DNA of 44,708 nt from a virus. Taxonomy: Duplodnaviria > Caudoviricetes. A program made the translations under genes and the position numbers. Each line of letters starts with the position of its first letter. Position 1 is the stretch's first letter. Positions 303 to 25,516 of this stretch are shown piece after piece. Location: the IMG/VR virus record IMGVR_UViG_3300028392_000106, positions 1 through 44,708 of that record; one strand, written 5' to 3'. Under the pieces are notes generated by a model. The model worked only from the letters and a program-made list of their open reading frames with translations, made no database searches and was not told where the DNA came from.

Positions 303-942
303 AAAATTTAATGAGTTTTTAGAAAACAAAGATACCTTATACATCTTTGACTTCGATGATACGCTTGTAAATTCCCCAAGTTTTGAAGAATTGGCTATTG
401 AATTCCTAAAAGAGGATTTAAGTATTGGTGATATGCTTAAAACATCTGTAGGAAGAATAGGAGTTAATTTAAGAGACTTAAAATGGGAAAATGGTAGAAT
501 ATATGTAAATGATCTTAAAAATGAAATTAAAGAATTTGGTAACTGGATAAGAAAGGGTAAAAGAGTTTATTTAGTATCTCCTAATATTTTTCATGTATCT
601 GATATAAGCTTACCTACAAGTATTAAAGAATTGTCTAATTTATATTCTTCAATTGAAGATAAATGTATTGTAACAGCAAGACCTGAAAGTTTAAGAGCAA
701 AAATAGAATCCAAACTAAAAGAATTTGGATTAGAAATTCCTAAGTTTGGATTACATATGGCTCCTGATAATACTAAAAATGCAGGTCATTGGAAAGGCGA
801 AAGGATAGTTGAAATAATTAATGAAACAGGATTCAAAAAAGCTATTTTCTATGATGATAATGCTAAATACATATCAAAGGCAACAAGAGTAGTAAAAGAA
901 AAACTTCCAAATATAGATTGGAAAACAATTAGAGTATTATAA
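289..942 (+). CDS. HAD-superfamily phosphatase-like protein with N-terminal KKFNEFLE peptide
   Basis: HAD motif I FDFDDTL, motif II TAR, motif IV FYDD. Confidence 0.7.
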   Translation: MMKIKKFNEFLENKDTLYIFDFDDTLVNSPSFEELAIEFLKEDLSIGDMLKTSVGRIGVNLRDLKWENGRIYVNDLKNEIKEFGNWIRKGKRVYLVSPNIFHVSDISLPTSIKELSNLYSSIEDKCIVTARPESLRAKIESKLKEFGLEIPKFGLHMAPDNTKNAGHWKGERIVEIINETGFKKAIFYDDNAKYISKATRVVKEKLPNIDWKTIRVL

Positions 943-2637
943 TTCCGATTCTAACTGTTTTATTTCATCTAAAATAGATTTCAATTCTTCTTTTTTATCC
1001 ATCATTTCCTTCTTTGCTTTCTTTCTATCAGCATAAACATCTTCAAGCATTCTTAATGTTGGTGAAACTCTTTTCTCAAAAACAACACCATTAACGCATA
1101 AAACATGTTTATCTAAATCAATTGGTCTACCATTTTCACATTTAGATTTATCTTTATCATCTTGAACACCAACAAATGTTTCCGGTGCTATAAAGAATTG
1201 TCTTTGTGTTGTTGGATATAGTGACGCAAAATCATAAATTACACACCACCGATTCATGCCAACAACCGGATCCTTTACCCAACCACCAGCAATAGTTGAT
1301 TCAGCGTCTCCTTTCTCATCACGGAAGAGAACAATGTTATCCATCTCACGAAATCTATTTCTTAAAACTCCTTCTGTAATAGCCAATGAGCCAAGAGCGT
1401 TATTCATTTGAGAAACAACATCTACAATTCTAATTTTAGCTAATGATGAAATCGCATAAATAATTGAAATGTAATTACGAGCATCATGAATCTTTTGAAC
1501 CAACACAGAGTCAACCGCGTTATAATACATATAAATTTCAAAATCTTCTTCATATAGTTTCTGTAGATTAGAAACATTTACTTCTTTGAATAGATTTTTA
1601 TATGTTAGAAACTTATCTTTTGTAAACTCTATTCTATCCGTACCAACATACATATAATATGTGTCTTTTTCAGTTCTACAAATATCACCTTCTTTAAAAG
1701 AATATCCATTTATAGTAGAATCTTCTTTCAATTTATAAATTGAGTTAACATATTTGACTTTTTCAACTCCTACTAACTTACTAGCAACAAAGTCTAATGA
1801 TGATGATTCTTTTACTTTAATAGAAGTATCACAAACTTCATACAATTGCATGTAGTCAAAAATCATTCTATGTGCAGGAACTTCAAAATCTGTTGACCAA
1901 ATTTTATTCAGTCTTTTTGTTAAAGAAGAAACAGCTGGGTCAATTTTATATTCTTTACCGTTAGTCCATTTAGATATTTTTCTTGAACGGTTAACTAAAT
2001 ACAACCAGTCATATTTAAGAAAGTTCCAACCAGTTAAGATAGGCATTTTTGGAATCATCTTATAGAAGAAAGCATACAACATATCAAACTCATCATCATA
2101 CTTGATGTATTTGAATTTATAATCAGCTCCAAATTTTTCAAAATATTTATTACTATTATTTTTAATTCTTTGTTGAGCATCTTCACTTAGTTCTTTAAGA
2201 CCTAATAAGATAATTTTATCATCATAAACAATTGATATAGAAAGAACCTGGGTTGATGCTCCTTCTTTAGTGACATTACCATGTTGGTCTAAAACATCAG
2301 CCGCTTCAGGAAAACCGTCAACGATTTCAGTTTCAATATCTATAAAGAATATTTTTGGTAAATTAAACTCAAATATTTCATTTCTCTCAGATTCTGGAAG
2401 ATCATCTAAAAACTCATAGATGGCATATCTATCTGGATGACTAACTTCTATCTGTTTTACAGACTTACCATCCCAAGACCTAAATGTAGGGTGTTTTAGT
2501 GGATCATTGTCTTCACAAGAAATGTATTTCATTGGGTTATCCCAATTGTAGTATTTTAGTTTGATTTCACCGGATTTATCAACGTAACTTACTACTAATT
2601 TCTTACTATTACTTAAATATTGTGTCTCTACAAGCAT
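937..2637 (-). CDS. Family B DNA polymerase, N-terminal part (3'-5' exonuclease plus motif A); split gp43-like
   Basis: ExoI DIET, ExoII GWNFLKYD, ExoIII YNAVD, motif A DFASLYP; ends after the first fingers helix, with no KxxxNSxYG or YGDTDS. Confidence 0.9.
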   Translation of the reverse strand: MLVETQYLSNSKKLVVSYVDKSGEIKLKYYNWDNPMKYISCEDNDPLKHPTFRSWDGKSVKQIEVSHPDRYAIYEFLDDLPESERNEIFEFNLPKIFFIDIETEIVDGFPEAADVLDQHGNVTKEGASTQVLSISIVYDDKIILLGLKELSEDAQQRIKNNSNKYFEKFGADYKFKYIKYDDEFDMLYAFFYKMIPKMPILTGWNFLKYDWLYLVNRSRKISKWTNGKEYKIDPAVSSLTKRLNKIWSTDFEVPAHRMIFDYMQLYEVCDTSIKVKESSSLDFVASKLVGVEKVKYVNSIYKLKEDSTINGYSFKEGDICRTEKDTYYMYVGTDRIEFTKDKFLTYKNLFKEVNVSNLQKLYEEDFEIYMYYNAVDSVLVQKIHDARNYISIIYAISSLAKIRIVDVVSQMNNALGSLAITEGVLRNRFREMDNIVLFRDEKGDAESTIAGGWVKDPVVGMNRWCVIYDFASLYPTTQRQFFIAPETFVGVQDDKDKSKCENGRPIDLDKHVLCVNGVVFEKRVSPTLRMLEDVYADRKKAKKEMMDKKEELKSILDEIKQLESEL

Positions 2638-2705
2638 GAATTTTTTATTTTATTACATGTGTTATATCATTTTTATAAAAAAAGTTATTTTGAATTAGGA
2701 TATTA

Positions 2706-2713
2706 AATATATA
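2706..2713 (+). promoter_or_regulatory. Representative WATATATA promoter-like motif
   Basis: AATATATA 5 nt before the 2719 ATG; same motif in the same relative position before many genes. Confidence 0.65.
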
Positions 2714-2718
2714 CTCAT

Positions 2719-4275
2719 ATGAAAATTAACAGATATACCGACTTTATAAATGAAAGTAAATTAGAATTACTTTTAGAAGCTAATATTAAATACACTAAGG
2801 ATTTTATAAATGTTCTTACTGATATTAATTCGGAATTATCCAGAAAAGTTTTAAACTTAAATGGTAAGGAAGTAGATGTTAATACAAATTACATTGATAT
2901 AGATAAAGATAAAGAAGATGTTATAAAATTTATACCTGAGAATAAATTAAAATCATTAAAGGTAAAAGTTATAAATCCTGGAACCTCATATGATACACTT
3001 TCTGAAAATTTAGAAAAAGATGGAAGATATCCTATAAAAAATGTGAGAATTCCACTAAATGGTTCAATTGGTGAAGTTGTTAAAGAACTAACAGCTGATG
3101 AGATGTCATCTTTAAGTGGTACAAGTAAAACATATTGGAAAAATATATATGAAAAGGGTATTAGAATAGTTCATTTTAAATATACTGATAGAAATGGAGA
3201 AGGTGAGATTATAATGGGTAGTCAAGGATTAGATTATCAAACAGATGAGATACCTAAGAGTGAAATTGGAGTAGGTAGATTTGTAAGAAGAATATTAGAT
3301 AAAGCTGGTGAAAAAGTAAGTGATAAAGATATTGAAGAATTTGTTAATAAATATAAATCTTTAATACAAATAAGAAAAGAAGCTTTCTCAAGATTTAAAA
3401 TAGTATCCGGTGAAGAGATTAGAGGTTTTTATTCATCAGATAACTATGAAAATATGGATGGAACATTAGGTAATTCTTGCATGAGATATGAGAAATGTCA
3501 AAAGTTCTTAGATATCTATGTTGGAAATTCAGAACAAGTAAAAATGGTTGTTTTAATGAATAGAAAAGATGGCACATCTATAACCGGAAGAGCACTTCTA
3601 TGGACTGATAACTTAGGTAGAAAAATAATGGATAGAATCTATACTAATAATTCAGCGGATGAAACATTATTTAAAGAGTATGCAATTAAAAATGAATTCT
3701 TATATAAGGAAAGACAAGATAGTAATGAGGACACAAAGTTATTACTAAATGGTAAAGTAGTGGATGAACAAAAAGTGATAATTGAACTACCAAGTTTTGA
3801 TTATAATTATTATCCTTATATGGATACATTCAAAAATTATAATCCATCAACAGGAAAGTTATCAAACAGTAATGACGGAAGTTATGACTATAATTTAGAA
3901 GAAACTGATGGTGGTAATGGTTCTTGTGAATATTGTGGTGGTCGTGGTAGAATAGAGTGTCATGATTGTAGCGGAAGTTGTGAGGTAGATTGCTCAGATT
4001 GTGATGGTAGAGGAAATACAAGATGTGATGAGTGCTCTGGATCTGGTGAGTTCGAGTGTGGTAATTGTGAGGGAACTGGCGAAATTGAAGACGAAGGAGA
4101 AGACGGTGAAACTACTACTAAAGAATGTCCAGAATGTCGTGGAGACGGAAATAATAAATGTGAAGATTGTAACGGAGATGGTGAAATAGGATGTACTAGT
4201 TGTGACGAAAGAGGACAAGTTGAATGTTATTCATGTGATGGAAATGGTAATGTAGACTGTCCTGAATGTGGTTAA
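2719..4275 (+). CDS. Phage protein with conserved-looking core (SCMRY..GRALLW..MDRIY..YPYMDTF) and C-terminal DnaJ-type zinc-finger repeats
   Basis: 518-aa ORF; ten CxxC(xGxG) motifs at the C-terminus; N-terminal RYTDFINE peptide. Confidence 0.7.
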   Translation: MKINRYTDFINESKLELLLEANIKYTKDFINVLTDINSELSRKVLNLNGKEVDVNTNYIDIDKDKEDVIKFIPENKLKSLKVKVINPGTSYDTLSENLEKDGRYPIKNVRIPLNGSIGEVVKELTADEMSSLSGTSKTYWKNIYEKGIRIVHFKYTDRNGEGEIIMGSQGLDYQTDEIPKSEIGVGRFVRRILDKAGEKVSDKDIEEFVNKYKSLIQIRKEAFSRFKIVSGEEIRGFYSSDNYENMDGTLGNSCMRYEKCQKFLDIYVGNSEQVKMVVLMNRKDGTSITGRALLWTDNLGRKIMDRIYTNNSADETLFKEYAIKNEFLYKERQDSNEDTKLLLNGKVVDEQKVIIELPSFDYNYYPYMDTFKNYNPSTGKLSNSNDGSYDYNLEETDGGNGSCEYCGGRGRIECHDCSGSCEVDCSDCDGRGNTRCDECSGSGEFECGNCEGTGEIEDEGEDGETTTKECPECRGDGNNKCEDCNGDGEIGCTSCDERGQVECYSCDGNGNVDCPECG

Positions 4276-4763
4276 AAATCACACTCAAAATAATCTAATA
4301 TCATACCATTCTTATCAATAATAAATTGTAGATCTTCTCTTTTTACTAATTGATATTCATAGTGATATCCGGTTTTAAATAAAGTTCTAATAAAAGGAAT
4401 ATCATTATTAAAGTTTACCATTTTAGAATCAATCATTAAACAAAGACATTTTTTATCATCTTCCGGATTATAATTAGTCATTTCATCTTGATGGTCTTTA
4501 CTTAAACCAGTCTTACCATAACAAATAAACTTAGTTATTAATTTTTCACCTGATAACTTCCAATTAATACTAATATCATCACCAATCTCAGCATTAATAT
4601 TATCATCTTTAAGATAAAGTCTAATCCAAAAATAAACTTTTTGTTCTTCGGTTACTTTTGATACAACATTTTGGTCAACTGAATCAGTTAATTCAGTAGT
4701 ATCTATTGTTCTTATTAGTTCAACTATGTTGTCTAAATAATTGTTTGATGTTATATTACTCAT
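4272..4763 (-). CDS. Hypothetical protein
   Basis: 163-aa ORF co-oriented with the thyA run; no motif recognised. Confidence 0.6.
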   Translation of the reverse strand: MSNITSNNYLDNIVELIRTIDTTELTDSVDQNVVSKVTEEQKVYFWIRLYLKDDNINAEIGDDISINWKLSGEKLITKFICYGKTGLSKDHQDEMTNYNPEDDKKCLCLMIDSKMVNFNNDIPFIRTLFKTGYHYEYQLVKREDLQFIIDKNGMILDYFECDF

Positions 4764-4847
4764 TTGTTTAATTAATTTTTAATTTTTTTTAATTTCTCTT
4801 GGAATTAATACAAAATAACTCTACTCTTTCACTTAATATCAACTCTC

Positions 4848-5714
4848 TCATATTGCAATCTCTAATTCTGATTTTATTTTCTGAATATCTTTTATATTTG
4901 ATATTTTGAAGTCCTCAATTTCTATACTATAAAAGTCTAAACCTGATTTTAATTCTAATATTGGTTGACTCTCAATTGGATTTCTATTTAATATCTCAAC
5001 CAAGCCACCAAAGTGTCTATCATAGACATGAAGATTCTGAACAAAATGACAAAACTTACCTACTTTATAACCTAAGTGTGAAGCAACCATCATCTGCAAA
5101 GCCACATACTGAATCTTATTTATATATCCAGCCATGATGTAATCATTACTTCTTTGGTTCAAAGTCATATCTAAATAAAAGAAATCATCTTCTTGAACAC
5201 CATCAGTATTTTTTTTACATCTACTTCTTCTTACAGACCAAATAGTCTCATAAGCGCATGGATGCAAACCTTTAGTTTCAGCCATATCTGATTCTTGATA
5301 CATATTCATTATATGTCTTCTTGAAAACGGTTCCTCTTTCAAAGACTTTAATAACTTATTCATTAAATCATATCTCTGAACAGTAGCTCCATATCTTTGA
5401 CCAATAGTGTCATCACCAACATTCCATTCATCCCACCAATTAATACCCATTTCTCTAGCAACAGATAGTGAATTGGTTTGTTTTTGATAAATCCAAAGTA
5501 TTTCTTTGATACCGGTTTTAATAGCGGTATTTCTTAATGTAGTAATTGGGAATTCATCTTTTGAAATGTCATATTCCTCAAATACTTGAGTTATAAATTT
5601 AGAATGTGCTTGTTCGCCATCTGCATATTTAGGACGAGGATCCTCATCCCAAGTACCATCGCCTTGTGATATTCTATTTAGGTTGTCGATGTAATATTTA
5701 TCCGCCTTTATCAT
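4848..5714 (-). CDS. thyA: Thymidylate synthase
   Basis: FPITTLR, EILW, YG, SRRH, catalytic LHPC, QRSND, N-L-HVYDRH motifs. Confidence 0.95.
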   Translation of the reverse strand: MIKADKYYIDNLNRISQGDGTWDEDPRPKYADGEQAHSKFITQVFEEYDISKDEFPITTLRNTAIKTGIKEILWIYQKQTNSLSVAREMGINWWDEWNVGDDTIGQRYGATVQRYDLMNKLLKSLKEEPFSRRHIMNMYQESDMAETKGLHPCAYETIWSVRRSRCKKNTDGVQEDDFFYLDMTLNQRSNDYIMAGYINKIQYVALQMMVASHLGYKVGKFCHFVQNLHVYDRHFGGLVEILNRNPIESQPILELKSGLDFYSIEIEDFKISNIKDIQKIKSELEIAI

Positions 5715-7192: not shown

Positions 7193-8212
7193 ATGATACT
7201 TGATAAAGAAATAGAAATAATTGTGAATAATCATAACCTAGAACATTATAAAAATAAAGGATATGATGCGATTTATAGAGAAAAACTAGTTGTTAAAGTT
7301 CTAGATTTAACAATAGGTAGTCATTATAAAATAAACGTTGAATGTGACATTTGTAATTCTAAAAATATCATAGAATATAGACAATTAAAAGGAAGGGAAG
7401 ATTATTTTTGTAATTCTTGTGCATCTAAGAAAAAGAAAAAAGTGATACTCACTAATGAAAAGAAGTCTATAATGATTGAAAAAATGTTGAAAACAAGGGA
7501 ATTAAAAAAATTACAAGATCCTAACTATGGGAAGAGTAAAATTAAAAAAGAGAAAGTAGTTAAAGAAGAAAAAATAAGAAAAAAACAGCCCAAAAAAACA
7601 GAAGGTGAGATCAATATAATAATCAAGAAAAGAAAGAAAACAAAGTTGGAAAAGTATGGAGATGAAAATTTTAATAATCAAGAAAAGAAAAAGAATAGTT
7701 TAAAAGAAAAATACGGAAATGAGAACTACAATAACACCGAAGCTAGAAAGGGAACACTAAAAGAAAAATATGGAAATGAAAATTTTAATAATCAAGAAAA
7801 GAAAGAGGAAACTTGTCTAAATAGGTATGGAGTTAGACACACAAATCAAATTTCAGATGTTATGTTCAAGATACAAAAGAGCGCATTTAAGTTAAAATTC
7901 CATGAAGAAATGAAACTATATTACAGAGGAACTTATGAAAAACACTTTTTAGATTTTTGTTTTTTAAATAATATTAATATTACTCAATTTGATAGTGAAT
8001 TGTATTATAAATACAATGATAATACTCACAGATACTATCCTGATTTTTATCACCCAGAGTCTAATATAATAATAGAGATAAAATCTGGATATACATTTGA
8101 GTGTGACTATGAAATAAATATGTTGAAGGAGAAATGTGCAAAAGAGAAATCTAATTTTTTATTTATTATAGATAAAAATTATAAAGAATTTATTAATTAC
8201 ATTTCTTTTTAA
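7193..8212 (+). CDS. Putative free-standing homing endonuclease with EKYG repeats and C-terminal PD-(D/E)xK domain
   Basis: Two CxxC motifs, EKYGxENxNN repeats, YYPDFY...IIEIKS nuclease motif; opposite strand to its neighbours. Confidence 0.7.
   Translation: MILDKEIEIIVNNHNLEHYKNKGYDAIYREKLVVKVLDLTIGSHYKINVECDICNSKNIIEYRQLKGREDYFCNSCASKKKKKVILTNEKKSIMIEKMLKTRELKKLQDPNYGKSKIKKEKVVKEEKIRKKQPKKTEGEINIIIKKRKKTKLEKYGDENFNNQEKKKNSLKEKYGNENYNNTEARKGTLKEKYGNENFNNQEKKEETCLNRYGVRHTNQISDVMFKIQKSAFKLKFHEEMKLYYRGTYEKHFLDFCFLNNINITQFDSELYYKYNDNTHRYYPDFYHPESNIIIEIKSGYTFECDYEINMLKEKCAKEKSNFLFIIDKNYKEFINYISF
7649..7830 (+). repeat. Coding tandem repeat, 57-bp (19-aa) period
   Basis: GAAAAxTAxGGA units at 7649, 7706 and 7763 plus a degenerate fourth (NRYG). 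Confidence 0.85.
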
Positions 8213-8534
8213 CCCATTTCTCTAAAATATCACCATGACAACTTTTTTTAGGACGACACCAACAACCCAATACCTTATCCTTTAGTTCGTGTAAATCATT
8301 CATTAAATCTTTATTAGAAAGAAGATATTGTTCATAAGCATCTACTATTGTTTTTCTTGGAGTTCCCTCTGGAAAAGTTTCACGAAGTTCTTTAGGGTAG
8401 GCCCATTTATTGTACTTACCGTTTGGAAGTCGACCAATATAAATATCAAAAGGTTCTTTCTTAAAATGAACTACTCTGACTTTGTGGTCATATTTAGGCT
8501 TACCCTTGAAACTATCAAAAAAATCATCGATCAT
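8193..8534 (-). CDS. DUF4326-family protein
   Basis: VVHxKKEPxDIYIGR...LHELKDKVLGCWCRPKKSCHGDIL signature; start overlaps the integrase stop (ATGA). Confidence 0.85.
   Translation of the reverse strand: MIDDFFDSFKGKPKYDHKVRVVHFKKEPFDIYIGRLPNGKYNKWAYPKELRETFPEGTPRKTIVDAYEQYLLSNKDLMNDLHELKDKVLGCWCRPKKSCHGDILEKWVKKKCN
8394..8527. repeat. Left copy of a ~134-bp diverged direct repeat (5' part of the DUF4326 gene)
   Basis: Aligns without gaps to 10596-10729; 38-bp perfect core 8434-8471 = 10636-10673. Confidence 0.92.
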
Positions 8535-9328
8535 ATTGGTAGATTTACTTTACTCAATAATTGATTTGAAACGTGTGTATATATCTCAGTTGTTTTGGAA
8601 GAAGAGTGACCTGCTATTTTCTGGATAATTCTTAAATCTGTTCCACTTTCTAAAAGGTTAGTGAAAGAGGAATGTCTTAGAGTATGTATAGAAGATGATT
8701 CATCAATATATTTTTTGTATATTTTCTGACAGGAACCAATTGAATATTTACCACCAGATTGTCCGTTAAATAGATATTCCTTGGGTTTATATTCTTTCCA
8801 ATAGTCTCTTAATAAATCTAAAACTCTTTGAGAAAGAGGAACTATTCTATCTTTTTTACCTTTGGCATTTTTGATATGAATAATCATTCTTTTGGAGTCA
8901 ATATCTTCAATTTTAAGATTAACTACTTCTGATACTCTTAAACCAACTGAATAGGTTAGTGTGAGTATAGTTTTATGTTTTAAGTTAGTTATTTTAGATA
9001 GTTGTTCTTTTATGTGATTTCCATCTATAACTTGTGGAAGTTTCTTTTCCGATTTGGGTCTTTCAATTTTTGATAAATGTATATCTTTTTTATTAAGTAT
9101 ATACTTAGCAAATAATTTTAAACAACCTATGTATTGATTTTGCTGACTTATAGAAGTATAAGATTTATTTTCCAAAAAACTTACTATTCTATTTGTAGTA
9201 ATTTGATAAGGGTCTTTTATTCTCTCTTCTTTTAGAAAGAAAGATAAATAAGAAACATATAAAGTTATACTTCTCTCGGAGTAATTTTTATATCTTAACT
9301 TTTCTTCAAATATTTTAAGAATTTTCAT
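8531..9328 (-). CDS. Tyrosine recombinase (integron-integrase-like, lacking the IntI-specific insertion)
   Basis: N-terminal SAM-like YSERSITLY; catalytic set GLRVSE (R), KGKK (K), HTLRH, AGH, TEIY (Y). Confidence 0.93.
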   Translation of the reverse strand: MKILKIFEEKLRYKNYSERSITLYVSYLSFFLKEERIKDPYQITTNRIVSFLENKSYTSISQQNQYIGCLKLFAKYILNKKDIHLSKIERPKSEKKLPQVIDGNHIKEQLSKITNLKHKTILTLTYSVGLRVSEVVNLKIEDIDSKRMIIHIKNAKGKKDRIVPLSQRVLDLLRDYWKEYKPKEYLFNGQSGGKYSIGSCQKIYKKYIDESSSIHTLRHSSFTNLLESGTDLRIIQKIAGHSSSKTTEIYTHVSNQLLSKVNLPI

Positions 9329-9359
9329 ATAGAATCATATATAAAATAAGTGATTTAGT

Positions 9360-9393
9360 TTAATTATAGATATATAATAGTTATGTGTAAGTG
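9360..9393 (+). other. Candidate attI / first cassette junction (crossover G9380/TT)
   Basis: GTTATGTGTAAGTG (9380-9393) matches 13/14 the reverse complement of CACCTACACATAAC (10156-10169); no hairpin to its left. Confidence 0.7.
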
Positions 9394-9455
9394 TTCCGTT
9401 CATCGTTCTAATCAACATTTTGGTTGAAAATTTTAAAAGAAAAAATCCCATACAT

Positions 9456-10046
9456 TTATGATTTATAATACCATTTTGGAAATATACCTTTTTCAAAATT
9501 TGAATTAATTTCTTTATTTATATTAATCGCTTCGTTTTCTGTAATATTCACAAATTCTATTTCATCCACATCACCAACTCTTCCAAAATCCCTTTCCTCA
9601 CCAACTTCAGCAACTCTGTATCCAATTTTATTTGGAATATATTTACCATCAACATAACCCCAATGTTTCTGAACCGCCACAATTTCAAATATCATACCCA
9701 TATTTACAAGTAATCCTAATTTACGCCATTCTTTTTGTTTTTTAAATTTTACATATCTACCAATATTTTTATCCAATTCTTCATCATCTACTTGTAGTGG
9801 TATTGTTTTGATGATATTTTTTGATGTTTGATATTTATTGATATGTTTTTCAATTTCTTTTTTTACATCAATTGATTTATCACTATATGATTTTAAAAGA
9901 GTTTTTTCGTGGTTTGATAATGAATCTATTCCAAACTCACTTATCTTATCTAAGATAGTATTTAATTGATATTCTGAAAGGTTTTCATTCAAAAATTGTT
10001 TCCAATTCTTAATCTTATTTATTTGTTCTCTCATATCTTTACTCAT
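9456..10046 (-). CDS. Cassette-1 protein (hypothetical; KNWKQFLNE peptide and ILDKISxxGxDSLSxxEK motif)
   Basis: ORF track 9456..10091; likely start is MSKDMREQ at 10046, just downstream of a TATATATA motif. Confidence 0.75.
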   Translation of the reverse strand: MSKDMREQINKIKNWKQFLNENLSEYQLNTILDKISEFGIDSLSNHEKTLLKSYSDKSIDVKKEIEKHINKYQTSKNIIKTIPLQVDDEELDKNIGRYVKFKKQKEWRKLGLLVNMGMIFEIVAVQKHWGYVDGKYIPNKIGYRVAEVGEERDFGRVGDVDEIEFVNITENEAININKEINSNFEKGIFPKWYYKS

Positions 10047-10162
10047 AGTATTTTCTTTTATATATAAATAGATTAAAATGATAAAATACAACCCTTCTTT
10101 TTCTTTTAAAATTTTTGTTCAGTTCTCTGATTAAACATTCTACCTTAATAATCCACACCTAC

Positions 10163-10256
10163 ACATAACAAGGTGTATAAGAAAGTTTGCTATAAAATTA
10201 AGTGGTAAATTGAAAGTTCATCTAAGCAAACCTTCTCATACACCCAATCGTTCCCC
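10163..10256 (+). other. attC-like hairpin 1
   Basis: ACATAAC-AA-GGTGTATAAGAAAGTTTGCT...AGCAAACCTTCTCATACACC-CAATC-GTT; stem 18/20 complementary. Confidence 0.82.
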
Positions 10257-10446
10257 ACTTATAGTTAAATTGAATATCACTTATCAACATTTGTTCAAAT
10301 TCTTCTTCCGAATATGTTGCATAACTTTTTGATGGTAATGATAAGTTCAATTTAACTTCTTTCATCCATCGTTCATCATCATTTACATTATCCATATAGT
10401 TTCTCCACAATGGATTTTCGTCTTGTGTGTTTATTTTCCAACTCAT
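10222..10446 (-). CDS. Cassette-2 small hypothetical protein (C-terminus runs into attC-like hairpin 1)
   Basis: 74-aa ORF with A-rich leader; last codons IGCMRRFA derive from the hairpin arm. Confidence 0.6.
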   Translation of the reverse strand: MSWKINTQDENPLWRNYMDNVNDDERWMKEVKLNLSLPSKSYATYSEEEFEQMLISDIQFNYKWGTIGCMRRFA

Positions 10447-10488
10447 AATTTTATTTTTTTTAATTTGTATAATTTTTGTTTTACATAC

Positions 10489-10572
10489 TTATAACAACAA
10501 ATATAAGAAATAAATCTTACTTTGTCTATTTTTTATGAAAAGATTTACTTCTCATATTTGCAACCGTTATAC
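10489..10572 (+). other. attC-like hairpin 2
   Basis: TTATAAC-AA-CAAATATAAGAAATAAATCTT...AAGATTTACTTCTCATATTTG-CAACC-GTTATAC; stem 19/21 complementary. Confidence 0.82.
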
Positions 10573-10592
10573 ACAATATTTTTTTAACACCT

Positions 10593-10733
10593 TCAAGGGT
10601 AAGCCCATTTGTTGAACTTACCATTTGGAAGTCGGCCAATATAAATATCAAAAGGTTCTTTCTTAAAATGAACCACTCTTATTTTATGTTCGTGTTTAGT
10701 TTTACCTTTAAAACTATCAAAAAAATCATTCAT
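10593..10733 (-). pseudogene. Truncated 5' copy of the DUF4326 gene (46 codons)
   Basis: Translates MNDFFDSFKGKTKHEHKIRVVHFKKEPFDIYIGRLPNGKFNKWAYP*, 39/44 identical to the aligned start of 8193..8534. Confidence 0.9.
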
Positions 10734-10753
10734 TATCACAAAAACTAATAACA

Positions 10754-11233
10754 CTACAAGTTATATTTTAGACACTGATTTAAGATGTATTTAGAATGTT
10801 CTAATTGTAAGTGAGTAGCTAATCCAATAGTAATGTGAAATCCAAAATAAGGATCTGGAGTTAATCCCATAACACTTCTAATATTTTTAGCATCATCACT
10901 ATCAGCATTTATCCACCAGTGACCTTTATCATTCGCTCTAATTAAAGTTGGATCATATTGTATTCTTATTTCTTTACCATGAAATAATTGACGGCCTTGA
11001 TCATATAGATACTCAGTTTCTGGGTCAAATTTATCATTAATAATAGTTAAGTGAGTTCCTCTTAAAGGCTTATTTAAGTATAAATTAAATCTTTTTTTTA
11101 AGAACCAAGAGTAGTATTCCCAGATATCACAATCAAATTTAATCATAGCAGTTTTCTTCCAAGAAGCTTGTTTATTATGCTTTTTGGTGACATTTACTGG
11201 GTCAAATTCTATCTTTCCGATTAACTCTAACAT
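10754..11233 (-). CDS. 2H-phosphoesterase-family protein
   Basis: Two HxT motifs (HLTI, HITI) about 70 aa apart in a 159-aa protein. Confidence 0.65.
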   Translation of the reverse strand: MLELIGKIEFDPVNVTKKHNKQASWKKTAMIKFDCDIWEYYSWFLKKRFNLYLNKPLRGTHLTIINDKFDPETEYLYDQGRQLFHGKEIRIQYDPTLIRANDKGHWWINADSDDAKNIRSVMGLTPDPYFGFHITIGLATHLQLEHSKYILNQCLKYNL

Positions 11234-11269
11234 ATAACAAAGATAGGAAATATTTTTAATATATACAAT

Positions 11270-11701
11270 ATGATTATAATTACATTATTATTAACAAACT
11301 TAATCTGGATAGCTTATTCAATGATTGATGGATTCAGAGAAGGATTCTATTGGCACTATAGAAATAATAGCAGAAGAACTTGTGAATTTGAAATTAACAG
11401 AATTTTCTCTTTACAAAGATCACTTGTAATATTACTAATTTCTGGATTCCTAGTACATACTTTAGGATGGTACTCATTAATATCAACATTATCCATGATT
11501 ATGTTATTTAGTTACTTTCATAACGGAACTTATTATCTAACAAGAAATAAACTAGATGATAAAATGTATCCAATGAGATGGAAAGATGAATCTAAAACTC
11601 TTCCAGTATTTTATTCTGGACTAATGAAATATAATAAAAGAACAGGACTAATGGTATTAGGATTGCTGATTCAAATATTTGTATATATATTCTTACTATA
11701 A
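11270..11701 (+). CDS. Integral membrane protein
   Basis: About four hydrophobic segments; AATATATA motif just upstream. Confidence 0.7.
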   Translation: MIIITLLLTNLIWIAYSMIDGFREGFYWHYRNNSRRTCEFEINRIFSLQRSLVILLISGFLVHTLGWYSLISTLSMIMLFSYFHNGTYYLTRNKLDDKMYPMRWKDESKTLPVFYSGLMKYNKRTGLMVLGLLIQIFVYIFLL

Positions 11702-20441: not shown

Positions 20442-23400
20442 TTATTTTTTTACTTTAACACCAGAAGATGTTCTTAACTCATTTGTGTAGTCAGCCAATG
20501 TACCTGAGTTTTTAGCAATTGTCCCTAACTTAGCATCCATTGCTGCTAATAGTTGTATCATCTTTTGTTGATTTGGATCAGGAGCCGCCTTTGCGCCCTT
20601 ACCAGCATTAACACTAGCTGGTTTTTTAGCATCTTCTGGCTTAGCATCTATTTCATTTATAGCATCAACAAATACTCCAGCCTTGTCCTCTAACTTACTC
20701 AACATATCATCAAACATATCAGGATCCATTAAAGACATTAAAATAACATTTGAAGTAAATGACTTAATAGCTGATAATTTTTCAGCATCAATAGCATTAA
20801 TTGCATTACCAAAGTTTTGTATAGATTGACTTAACTTAACATAAGCATTCCCTAACTTAACCATTCCATTTACTACTCTATCCATTGGATCCTCTGTTGA
20901 TTCAGCTCCAAATAACATTCCTTGAATAGCACCGACCAATCCTCCTTTTTGACCAGGATAATTACCAGCAACATATTTAGCTAATTCAACATATGATGTT
21001 ATGTTTGAGGCTATTGATTTCATAAAACCAGGATTAATAGTTGAGTTAAATACTGCAGCATTTGCTTTTATCTTAGCAGCTATTAAAACTAACATGTCAG
21101 CAACACCAAGTACATCTTCATTAACTTCCAAATCACTACCCATTATCATACTCATTGACATTAAAGAAACACCAACTCCATCAATCCATTGTTTTGTTGG
21201 ATATGATTTAAAGTCACCAGTTTTAATAATATTATCAACCGATACTATTGATTCAGCCACATCTGTTAAACCACCACCAAAAAAGTCAGATATTGCACCA
21301 CCAACAACAGATCCAAATGAAATACTGTCCATTAGACCGGTCCACTTTATTATTGTTTCGGAAACACCATCTATCCATTGTTTAGATGGATATGTTTTAA
21401 ATTCTCCACTTCTGAAGATATCATCAACTTGTTTTATACTCCAAGCAGATATTAATACTGAGAAAGCCCCTAAAATAATTAAAGGAAGGAAAAAAGCCAA
21501 CCCAACTGATATCATCGCGATTTCAAGTATTGATTTAGTAGCTCCTAACATCCATTTATCTGATGGGTAGGATTTAAAACTACCCTCTGAAAATACTTTA
21601 TCTATTAACATAATAGTCAATGCTACCGCCATTATTGCGATTGAACCTAATATAATAAGAGGTGATAAAAATGCTATTGCCACTGCGACTAAAGACATTG
21701 CTAATATGGTTCCAGTAGCTCCTAACATCCATTTCATTGATGGAAACTTATTCTCATCAAAATTACCTTCAGCGAATATCATTGATGTTGCGACAATAGT
21801 TGCTGCTACAAGTAATATAACTCCTAATCCCATATAAAAGAATGGATTAAATACTTGAAATCCTAATAAAACCGCTGCTACTCCAAATGCCGCTATACTT
21901 CCACCGACTCCAAGTGCCCAAGATAAACTTGGATAAGTACCATCAGCATAACTACCCAAAGCTAGTATAGCAGAAGCGGCTACTATTGTACCAGCTACTA
22001 AAAGTGTTACTCCTAGACCAGCATAAAAGAATGGATTAAGTGCTTGAGTTCCCAATAGAACAGCGGCTATTCCAAATACAGCCAGTGAAAGTCCAACACC
22101 AAGTGCCCATTCCCATTTTGGATAACCACCTTCCTCATATGTTCCATATGATAATATCAAAGAGGACGCCATAATAGTTGCTGCTATTATAACTATTGCT
22201 ATACCACCCTTGATATAATCGCTTATTCCTCCTAATTTATTTAGTATTATTGCAGCTAATCCCATAACCACAGCCGCAATAGCTACTGTTATTGCTAATC
22301 CCAATATACTAAGTAACTTCATAAATGGTATTTCCTGAGTCTGAGCTAATAAATATGAGGAAGCCATTATAGCCAATGACATAGCGGTAAAAAGAATAGG
22401 CATTATTATAGACGCTGCTATTAACTTAGAGTTACTTATTCCACCAATTGCTTTGAATATAAGTGATGCTGCGAATGATAAGACAACAAATACAATAGAT
22501 ATTGCAATAGATGTTAAAGCTTGGGCAAAGGTTATAGGAACAACCATTGCTAATAGCCAAGATGAAGCGGCTATCGCAAATGAAAGACCTATAAATATGA
22601 ATGGTATAGCGACAATTGCTTCAGCGATTGAATCAACTGAGATACCCTCAAATGATTTCATTATATTTTTCAAACCATAAGATATTACCGCAAATACAGC
22701 AGCGATTAAAATAGCAGTTATTGCTTGACCAAGTCCAATTGGCATAACTAATGCTAAAACATATGATGATAAAGCTATTGCAAGTGATAATGATAGAAAT
22801 ATCATAGGTATAAACTCAGCAACGGCGAATATATCAATTATATTAACACCTTTGAATGCGGTCATTATATTTTTCAAACCATAAGATATTACTGCAAATA
22901 CAGCAGCAATTAAAATAGCGGTTATGGCCTTACTAAAACTAAGTGGCATAACCAATGCTAGAACATAAGATGATAAAGCAATTGCAGTTGATAAAGCAAG
23001 AAATATAAAAGGTAGATATTCCATAGTTTTAACTAAAGTAAATATATTAACACCCTTTAAAGCCGTTATTATATTCTTCATACCATATGATAAAACAGTA
23101 AATACACCAGCGATTAGTATCGCGGTTAGTGCTTTACCAAAACTAAGAGGTATAACTAAGGCTAGTATCCAAGATGATACCGCTATAACACCAGCTATAA
23201 TAACTAAAACATATGAAGTATTAAGAGCATCCTTTGTTGATATTTTTAATTTAGCTATTTTCTCAAATGCTATTGATATTAGAGTCATTGCAAGTGCCAA
23301 TCCAACCACTGATAAGAAATCAACATTCCCAACCAATTTAAAAGCCATACCAATTGCCAATACAGCAACTGCTATAAGAAGTATAGTACCAACACCTTTT

Positions 23401-24592: not shown

Positions 24593-25516
24593 ATGAGTAA
24601 ATTAGTAACACTGAATACAGAGAAATTCGTAGAAAGATCAAATATTATACACGATAATGAATATGATTACTCTCTTGTATATTGTAATGGAAATAGAACA
24701 AAAGTTAATATTCTGTGTAGAAAACATGGTCTTTTTAAACAAAAAGCAGCATCTCATTTAAGAGGACAAAGATGTAAAAGATGTGTTTCAAGTGAGATAT
24801 CAAATGGATTAACAAAATTTATCAACAAATCAAATATTATACATAGCAATAAATATGATTATTCAAAATCAACTTATGTAAATAATAAAACAAAGATTGA
24901 AATAGTTTGCAAAAAACATGGATCTTTCTATCAGAGACCAGACTCACATATAAAAGGCAATGGATGTATTATTTGTAAATATAACTCAATGGGTGATAAG
25001 TTCAGAAATGATTTTAACGAGGATATCAATATTATGATAAACAAACACAATAATAAATATGATTATTCAATGGTTGAATTTAAAAACAACAAAGATAAAG
25101 TTAAGATAATTTGTAAAAAACATGGAATATTTAAACAGTCTTTATATAGTCACAAAAGAGGACTTGGTTGTTATATGTGTAGGGAGAGTAAAGGTGAGAT
25201 AGAAATATCCAATATTTTAGATAAAAATAACATAAAGTATATAAAACAAAAAAGATTCAATGATTGTATTGATAAAAAAACACTACCATTTGATTTTTAT
25301 TTAATTGATCACAACACATGTGTAGAGTTTGACGGCAAACAACATTTCGAATCAATTGATCATTGGGGTGGAGTAGATACTTTAAATAAAGTAAAAAGAC
25401 ATGATGTTATAAAAAATGAATTTTGTAAATCAAATAATATAAATTTATATAGAATTTCATTTTCAGATAATGTACTTGACGAGATGATTAAAATTATATT
25501 AAAAATAAAAGAATAA
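24593..25516 (+). CDS. Putative homing endonuclease (three DUF723-like Zn repeats plus PD-(D/E)xK/Vsr-like nuclease)
   Basis: Three HxNxYDYS...ICxKHGxFxQ...HxxGxxC units; LPFDFYL...VEFDGKQH. Confidence 0.8.
   Translation: MSKLVTLNTEKFVERSNIIHDNEYDYSLVYCNGNRTKVNILCRKHGLFKQKAASHLRGQRCKRCVSSEISNGLTKFINKSNIIHSNKYDYSKSTYVNNKTKIEIVCKKHGSFYQRPDSHIKGNGCIICKYNSMGDKFRNDFNEDINIMINKHNNKYDYSMVEFKNNKDKVKIICKKHGIFKQSLYSHKRGLGCYMCRESKGEIEISNILDKNNIKYIKQKRFNDCIDKKTLPFDFYLIDHNTCVEFDGKQHFESIDHWGGVDTLNKVKRHDVIKNEFCKSNNINLYRISFSDNVLDEMIKIILKIKE

Follow-up and report, generated by a model that had tools for sequence, protein, structure and literature searches.

The recombinase and its cassette array

The window analysed in this work, a stretch of viral DNA of 44,708 nucleotides, has a G+C content of 27%, and its open reading frames (ORFs) include a B-family DNA polymerase, a thymidylate synthase and a 1318-aa tail sheath. 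On the basis of these three genes we assign the window to a large myophage (jumbo phage). The segment of interest contains a recombinase gene and the beginning of an array of cassettes, with the following features:

8531..9328, minus strand: tyrosine recombinase of 265 aa, adjoining the cassette array (Pfam Phage_integrase and Phage_int_SAM_4)
9360..9382, plus strand: attI-like primary site, crossover G/TT at 9380/9381
9380..9393, plus strand: outer left arm (R' box) of cassette 1, 13/14 match to 10156-10169
9394..9426, plus strand: left unpaired shell segment, with sequence motifs conserved across shell families (8 leader families aligned)
9427..9444, plus strand: inner left arm, 18 bp; other families have different matched sequences at the same register
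9445..9455, plus strand: CCCAC-type motif at the shell/cargo junction, where homology with the shell-less locus L353 begins; loose ends 9444/9455
9456..10046, minus strand: cargo gene, 196 aa, with DUF6576 near the N-terminus and the xLNE-type leader common to most shell cargo
10059..10068, minus strand: TATATA motif at the right shell/cargo junction, immediately 5' of the cargo start; the L353 homology stops near 10064-10086
10098..10115, plus strand: inner right arm, 18 bp, perfect match to the inner left arm
10116..10155, plus strand: right unpaired shell segment, delimited from the shell-family alignment
10156..10169, plus strand: outer right arm (R'' box), pairs with 9380-9393
10167..10252, plus strand: attC-like hairpin 1 (83 class), G/TT at 10250/10251
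10251..10568, plus strand: unit 2, a cassette without left end, closed by hairpin 2 (AAC 10493, GTT 10566)

All six catalytic residues of the recombinase are present (R131, K156, H215, R218, H241 and Y250), and the insertion specific for IntI (the I2 helix) is absent from its catalytic domain. The protein matched the model TIGR02249 with 150.8 bits, split in two pieces (cut-off 265), and between the two matched stretches it is about 48 residues shorter than VchIntIA (2a3v; 33 vs 81 residues). The spacing of the motifs flanking the insertion is 58-60 in all 78 viral relatives having both of them, i.e. the insertion is missing from these enzymes too, and it is 59-68 in all 79 bacterial relatives with both motifs. 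The nearest relatives in genomes are mostly from Bacteroidota, thus the host is likely a member of this phylum. Relatives in the GenBank phage collection were at most 37% identical, and for 10040-10260 no DNA match was found in that collection. A search of Rfam gave no significant match with 8200-11300 of the window and only tRNAs with seven array loci.

The DUF4326 gene beside the recombinase (8394-8534) is repeated at 10596-10736 (87% over 141 nt), the far-side copy being truncated and fused to the start of the third cassette at 10566; a DUF4326 gene likewise adjoins the recombinase in L007. Elsewhere in the window, large ORFs contain coding repeats (22440-23225, 24649-25137 and 21174-21605) with periods of 204, ~200 and ~180 nt.

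Most of the 80 viral relatives of the recombinase are preceded, 50-90 nt before the start codon, by a TATA-rich site ending in GTT, and the sequence 3' of the crossover varies among them. ATA at -8..-6 and the GTT are conserved in the 65 distinct attI-like sites picked upstream of related integrases. One contig (depth 5.9) of run X1, possibly the run from which the window derives, contains the attI-like site of the window followed by a different first cassette. The hairpin profile found, in 81 sequences (duplicates included), 162 matches on the array side of the recombinase, two on the other side and none in reverse orientation, and there was no match in 550 kb of shuffled sequence. The attC-like hairpins are thus oriented, and they are more stable on the bottom strand. 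The stem of hairpin 1 has no bulged bases; it contains bottom-strand G:T pairs and a 3-nt asymmetric spacer. The 144 hairpin heads can be aligned without gaps, and G:T pairs occupy 218 of their 2692 positions (8%). In phages the array lies upstream of the recombinase and the longest ORF is antisense in 115 of 119 cassettes, whereas on Bacteroidota chromosomes the same kind of site is found downstream of the recombinase and the genes are in sense orientation in 20 of 24 cassettes.

Arrays of ~120-nt hairpin sites headed by related recombinases are found in the loci L155-L234 (Bacteroidota and other genomes); the sites are located downstream on the same strand with sense genes and number up to nine in L212 and seven in L223. 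Some hairpins are long, 183-215 nt (L015, L033, L080, L001, L026, and L395 near 3978), and their loops seem to carry starts of small genes reading through the arm into the adjacent cassette.

One explanation for such a locus would be that a phage acquired a canonical IntI integron, the inner repeat being a chance match in AT-rich DNA. The attI/attC layout and the G/TT crossover are as in integrons, and phage-borne attC clusters have been published (PMC9892861). The IntI insertion is, however, absent from all 78 viral relatives that have both motifs, and the stems lack bulges. Both findings are at odds with this explanation, and we give it hardly any credence.

In unit 2 the ORF 10222-10446 (minus strand) extends into hairpin 1, and the right end of the unit belongs to a known short-shell family. 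Because the left end of the unit is lost, we regard the GTT after hairpin 1 as a secondary site inside the unit 2 gene. The cargo of unit 2 had no relative among the fetched loci and no Pfam match.

Ends of the first cassette and differences between cultured phages

A preliminary description of this DNA had noticed that the first cassette has complementary ends and had interpreted them as the footprint of integration from a circle. We confirmed that 9380-9393 shares 13 of its 14 bases with the reverse complement of 10156-10169, that the bases now following hairpin 1 (GTT 10250-10252) do not match the outer arm, and that the inner pair (9427-9444 and 10098-10115) is perfect over 18 bp. None of 60 order-5 Markov copies of the window contained a perfect inverted pair of at least 18 bp within 1 kb; anywhere in the 44.7 kb, such a pair was present in 17 of the 60. 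Chance origin of the inner pair was rejected on these copies (0/60) and on a swapped-pair control for chance pairing (5/1190).

Circularisation of 9381-10250 in silico rebuilds a longer hairpin, as had been predicted: the calculated energy is -25.4 kcal/mol on the bottom strand (-13.5 in the linear form) and -19.7 on the top strand (-11.0 linear). The junction together with the inner pair folds as a single rod (-41.1 vs -23.8 kcal/mol). Both stems close across the gene also in the linear bottom strand of 9380-10252, in the MFE as well as in the centroid structure (z -3.25; 0 of 20 shuffles equally stable).

We then asked how general the relation between cassette start and cassette end is, counting over 162 cassettes bounded by two hairpins. 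In 99 of them 6-7 of seven bases (positions 4-10) of the start match the cassette's own attC-like site; the start of the next cassette, which served as control, matches to this extent in eight. The rule is obeyed by 61 different boxes. The "mismatch" at position 11 is itself conserved: an A stands here in the start of all 99 cassettes whose ends match, and in 78 of them the partner base on the top strand is a C, i.e. a G:T pair on the bottom strand. As most integron cassettes show self-pairing of 9-11 nt (Bouvier 2009, PMC2727003), the outer match is for the most part an established property of integrons, a little longer in this system.

The earlier reading is thus upheld as far as a cassette starting with bases of its own attC is concerned, on the evidence of the own-start rule and the attI-like site. 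As to the proposed circle, the joint from 10250 to 9381 was not found in seven sets of contigs (runs X1-X6 and X9), a type of data from which rare forms are dropped. It must be noted that such a joint could arise from two tandem shells too (L123). Sequencing depth in run X1 was ~45-50 across the cassette and 52-60 beside it, a difference to which we attach no meaning.

The same recombinase and array layout occur in cultured Polaribacter phages (Freya and Leef), in which the following arrays were compared:

L395 (Freya_10), 915-4082
L399 (Freya_6), 477-918
L396 (Leef_1), 2950-4930

Outside the array, Freya_6 and Freya_10 show 99.4-99.5% identity to either side of it. Between the GTT of the attI-like site and a distal GTT present in both phages they differ by whole cassettes, which is indirect evidence for activity in nature. 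Extended pairing of the ends is found in Leef_1 and Freya cassettes as well. Freya_10 also has one cassette of 61 nt without a gene, and the lengths of the Freya genomes (44.0-48.9 kb) track the position of the integrase. The paper describing these phages takes the integrase as a sign of temperate life (PMC8776804), and its main text uses neither "cassette" nor "integron".

The inner pair as part of a shared shell

The preliminary description had suggested that the inner repeats may record how a gene was packaged into the cassette, and had proposed a search for the same flanks around other genes. The exact flank patterns were found in 39 (left) and 35 (right) viral stretches. Of 49 distinct left flanks 27 are closed by a right flank, four are too short to tell, and in 18 no right flank follows within at least 1.5 kb, the sequence running into ordinary genes; these unclosed flanks suit decay or array ends as well as intermediates. 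The left flank is frequently located beyond the final hairpin of an array (L001, L119, L257, L288, L312 and 13 more), and such lone flanks may be array ends or half-loaded shells. The 27 closed shells enclose 25 unrelated gene families when the leader is removed from the comparison, so the expected recurrence around different genes was indeed observed, and it is not compatible with a footprint of the packaging of this one gene. Nor is the gene tied to this repeat, as its family also occurs in a shell with a different inner repeat. The inner repeat marks the shell, not a single packaging event.

The inner pair is 17-21 bp long in 21 of the 27 closed shells and 11-12 bp in six. TATATA precedes the cargo start in 23 of the 27, and we consider this motif, from its sequence and position, a likely phage promoter. 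An xLNE-type leader peptide starts the cargo in 20 of the 27; it may resemble the capsid-targeting sequences of T4 internal proteins. The concept of such targeting sequences in T4 internal proteins is described in PMC9958956. Similar F-x-N/T-E leaders start two window ORFs outside cassettes, 2719-4275 and one more, suggesting an N-terminal signal used genome-wide. Pfam matches were obtained for five of the other 26 cargo proteins (GNAT twice, ART-PolyVal, PARP-like and DUF6576). In L279 a family-1 variant shell surrounds several genes, including an endonuclease-like one, in a cassette of 2051 nt, which also contains a 299-aa sense ORF resembling, as judged by its start only, a DNA methyltransferase.

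The family-1 shell was found after different neighbours, and the hairpin heads that follow it belong to at least three classes (43, 83 and 118), their sequences parting directly behind the R'' box. Sites without extrahelical bases recombine also at the R'' box (Bouvier 2009, PMC2727003), and by analogy recombination on the R'' side would offer a route for swaps of the hairpin head. Directly after 21 of 27 family-1 shells there is a canonical start. Many of the "other" neighbours resemble hairpin ends scored low by the profile, and reconstruction of empty sites around the shells with non-att neighbours revealed no convincing interrupted gene.

Inner pairs are not limited to family 1. An in-register inner pair of at least 11 bp is present in 26 of 40 long-shell leader cassettes, and eight of 14 homologous leader families have inner pairs (11-18 bp; offsets 45-51/50-59) whose arm sequences are quite unlike from family to family. 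Across these eight families the unpaired segments keep common motifs. When extended pairing of the ends was counted irrespective of shell type, 75 of 133 phage cassettes had it, compared with 27 of 1330 swapped partners and with one of 38 Bacteroidota chromosomal cassettes. In short cassettes the extension often follows directly behind the box; detached stems accompany longer cassettes (median 652 vs 258 nt). The extension is more frequent in cassettes with 1-2 G+C in the box (57 of 85) than in those with three or more (18 of 48), the Spearman coefficient being -0.29, or -0.24 per distinct box (p 0.06). Bacterial boxes, which lack the extension, have a G+C content of 0.57 vs 0.34 for phage boxes. 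The link of the extension to A+T-rich boxes and to cassette length fits a stabilising role. It must be noted that the cassette counts are not phylogenetically independent and that family 1 was enriched by the pattern searches.

Could the inner pair be the terminal repeat of a small non-autonomous transposon (MITE) inserted into cassettes? A passenger gene enclosed by a perfect inverted pair of 18 bp, an arrangement seen with many genes, would be expected of such an element. All 17 viral matches of the inner arm with the adjacent motif are, however, behind a cassette GTT box, the sequence of the repeat differs between homologous families, and no transposase was found among the 38 window ORFs scanned. 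We regard this reading, very improbable in our estimate, as largely refuted.

Another possibility is that the pairing takes place in RNA, the 5' and 3' flanks of the message pairing with each other and thereby hiding the translation start or forming a processing stem. The genes are on the bottom strand, i.e. the coding strand is the folding strand, and the repeat of short shells takes in the A-rich leader as far as the start codon, and also the bases that follow the stop codon. Of the sequence words looked for in RNA runs, at most 8% were present. However, the likely promoter lies inside the inner arm, so that a transcript would hold one arm only, and G:U pairs, tolerated in RNA, are absent here. 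For these reasons an RNA function seems improbable to us.

The lack of wobble pairs was quantified on the DNA level: bottom-strand G:T pairs occupy none of 762 aligned positions in the end stems vs 218 of 2692 in the hairpin heads. In a calibration with 10%-wobble input the procedure recovered 2.9%, corresponding to ~22 predicted in the end stems. The missing wobble pairs fit exact copying from arm to arm, or a need for pairing on both strands. They are also among the observations favouring the main alternative to a functional shell, which is closest to the earlier packaging idea: the inner repeats would be neutral footprints, now without function, of a copying step in which the paired R boxes seeded a fold-back or a template switch, either at the birth of each shell family or on inversion of a gene to the orientation seen in phages. 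In yeast, template switching brings about both homogenisation of the arms and inversion of the spacers (PMC8604942). This explanation would account for arms which are perfect yet wholly different in sequence between families, for uncompensated drift within family 1, and for the position of the stop codon in 13 of 31 short-shell cassettes, where it ends no more than 2 nt from the end of the stem; it would also fit the coincidence of antisense genes (115 of 119) with repeats in phages and of sense genes (20 of 24) with no repeats in bacteria. What chance copying would not lead one to expect is the fixed register with conserved unpaired motifs in eight families, or the association with AT-rich boxes and cassette length; moreover, not a single cargo is flipped to sense in the 27 family-1 shells. 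We consider a neutral origin unlikely, though by no means negligible.

The cargo gene of the window has 52 relatives, and 42 loci (33 contexts) were compared. In L356 and L359 the gene sits in the family-1 shell, and in L360/L361 in a version of it with a variant right end. L370-L372 have it in a second shell, whose inner pair is not the same. In L364-L368 the shell is decayed and lacks the hairpin, in L358 and L378 half of a left flank precedes the gene, and further copies are free, outside any shell. In L353 the gene is 94% identical on the DNA level, the junction motif alone is left and homology stops at the shell junctions. This locus also contains a separate dispersed hairpin repeat flanking genes (2930-2980, 4010-3960 and 4245-4195), with G-rich and C-rich arms around a CCGG-type centre. 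In contigs of X5, X6 and X9 the flanks stand beside other cargo and break off at 9444 and 10051. Other genes show similar patterns: L118 and L129 have cargo and right flank in common and differ in left flank and hairpin, L276 and L095 share only left flank and cargo, and the cassette gene of L284 stands free in L008. Homologues of short-shell genes, among the matches listed, are almost only other cassette copies.

A tree of the cargo family was made with 22 rows, one per distinct locus, omitting near-duplicates and partial or broken copies; L354 and L355, which are 100% identical to the gene of the window, were left out of the later counts and of the tree. With midpoint rooting the free copies form deep branches, the copies from the two shells group apart, and those of shell 1 are interspersed with copies that are free or in decayed shells. 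Neither the midpoint root nor the backbone of this tree is firm; as it stands, the topology suggests that phage genes were captured and afterwards released.

Proposed mechanism and comparison with known systems

We think it probable that the shell clamps the single-stranded cassette and that it gets reloaded with phage genes. The attI-like site, the oriented array, the complementarity of the cassette's own ends and the shell shared by 25 gene families are the observed part of this model. By analogy with integrons, the unit would move by one-strand exchange at G/TT via a single-stranded circle. The outer stem (10-16 bp, with the conserved G:T) would be the outer binding arm of the recombinase, and the inner stem could serve as a second clamp, stabilising the end-to-end fold in AT-rich DNA. 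The clamp might act in the circle, or it might loop out the gene in the linear array and pre-align the two crossover points. New cassettes would arise by reloading of an existing shell, the cargo being exchanged at short conserved internal motifs, presumably the CCCAC-type motif after the stop codon and, at the start, TATATA with the codons of the leader peptide; in this way genes could move into and out of shells. We suggest, with less confidence, that templated copying from arm to arm keeps the two identical, in view of the near-absence of wobble pairs in them.

A strict need for the inner pair is contradicted by shells whose inner arms are deleted (L258, L325 and L360) and by the 58 of 133 phage cassettes without extension. 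Cassettes of the same recombinase family in bacteria, though longer, are extended in one case out of 38, which argues against a need for the clamp. Selection on pairing cannot be strict either, because single-arm changes are uncompensated in six of 27 family-1 shells. The unpaired segments of 33 x 40 nt between the stems weaken the case for a direct help to the recombination site.

A fuller version of the model, which we put forward tentatively and consider somewhat less likely to be true than false, would unite these elements in a self-folding shell composed of recombination arms, clamp, promoter and a leader that is possibly capsid-targeting; such a shell would be reloaded at its motifs, kept symmetric by copying, and served by a recombinase without I2 that also cuts on the R'' side and thus swaps hairpin heads.

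It is instructive to compare this system with those known from the literature, in which, subscription papers and preprint supplements being outside the scope of the search, we found no description of such a system or of such shells. Clusters of attC-like sites in phage genomes, including that of a Polaribacter phage, were described by Qi et al. 2023 (PMC9892861); their clusters consist of canonical attC sites and were tested with IntI1, and the accessible part of the paper describes neither shared shells nor reversed cassettes nor a short recombinase family encoded by phages. In the PeSL of T4-type phages (Arbiol et al. 2010, PMC2839356) short regulatory flanks held in common serve as recombination handles by which accessory genes are swapped; the shared flanks of our shells, with junctions at short motifs, recall this. 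In the PeSL system small circles are formed, and it has direct-repeat promoter/terminator modules and no site-specific recombinase, in contrast to the shells described here, whose flanks are inverted and lie inside att-bounded units adjacent to a recombinase. Secondary insertion at attG was shown for IntI1 (Loot et al., bioRxiv 10.1101/2022.09.11.507474); an analogous recombination at a non-att GTT would explain the truncated unit 2 and the shells with non-att neighbours.

An integron-like subgroup of simple tyrosine recombinases was recognised by Smyshlyaev et al. 2021 (PMC8138268), a paper which calls the insertion essential for integron function and, in the portion available, describes no arrays for the short members. 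The integron literature likewise treats the I2 helix as key to hairpin recombination, the IntI insertion being the element that binds extrahelical bases (Escudero 2016, PMC4792948), and the first assembly of cassettes is an open question in this field (PMC4792948, PMC8618304). The recurrence of one type of cassette end around many unrelated genes, the occurrence of one gene with and without such ends, and a recombinase without I2 bear on cassette genesis. If the model is true, phages carry their own gene-capture platform with cassettes built from phage genes, and if the reloading part holds, the shells would provide a worked case of cassette genesis in a hairpin-recombining system simpler than IntI. 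The cultured Polaribacter phages Freya and Leef make the system directly testable.

The closest parallel remains the integron (class 1, Vibrio), with which the phage system shares a recombinase located beside the primary site, the G/TT crossover, bottom-strand hairpins and cassette starts complementary to their own R''. Unlike integrons, the phage system has a recombinase without the IntI insertion, stems with G:T pairs and no bulges, cassette genes that, instead of being mostly promoterless and read from attI to attC, are reversed and have each its own promoter-like motif, a second, detached stem, long flanks shared within families, and the same end combined with different hairpin heads. The system works like an integron, but by the insertion, the extrahelical bases and the gene orientation it falls outside the IntI integrons.
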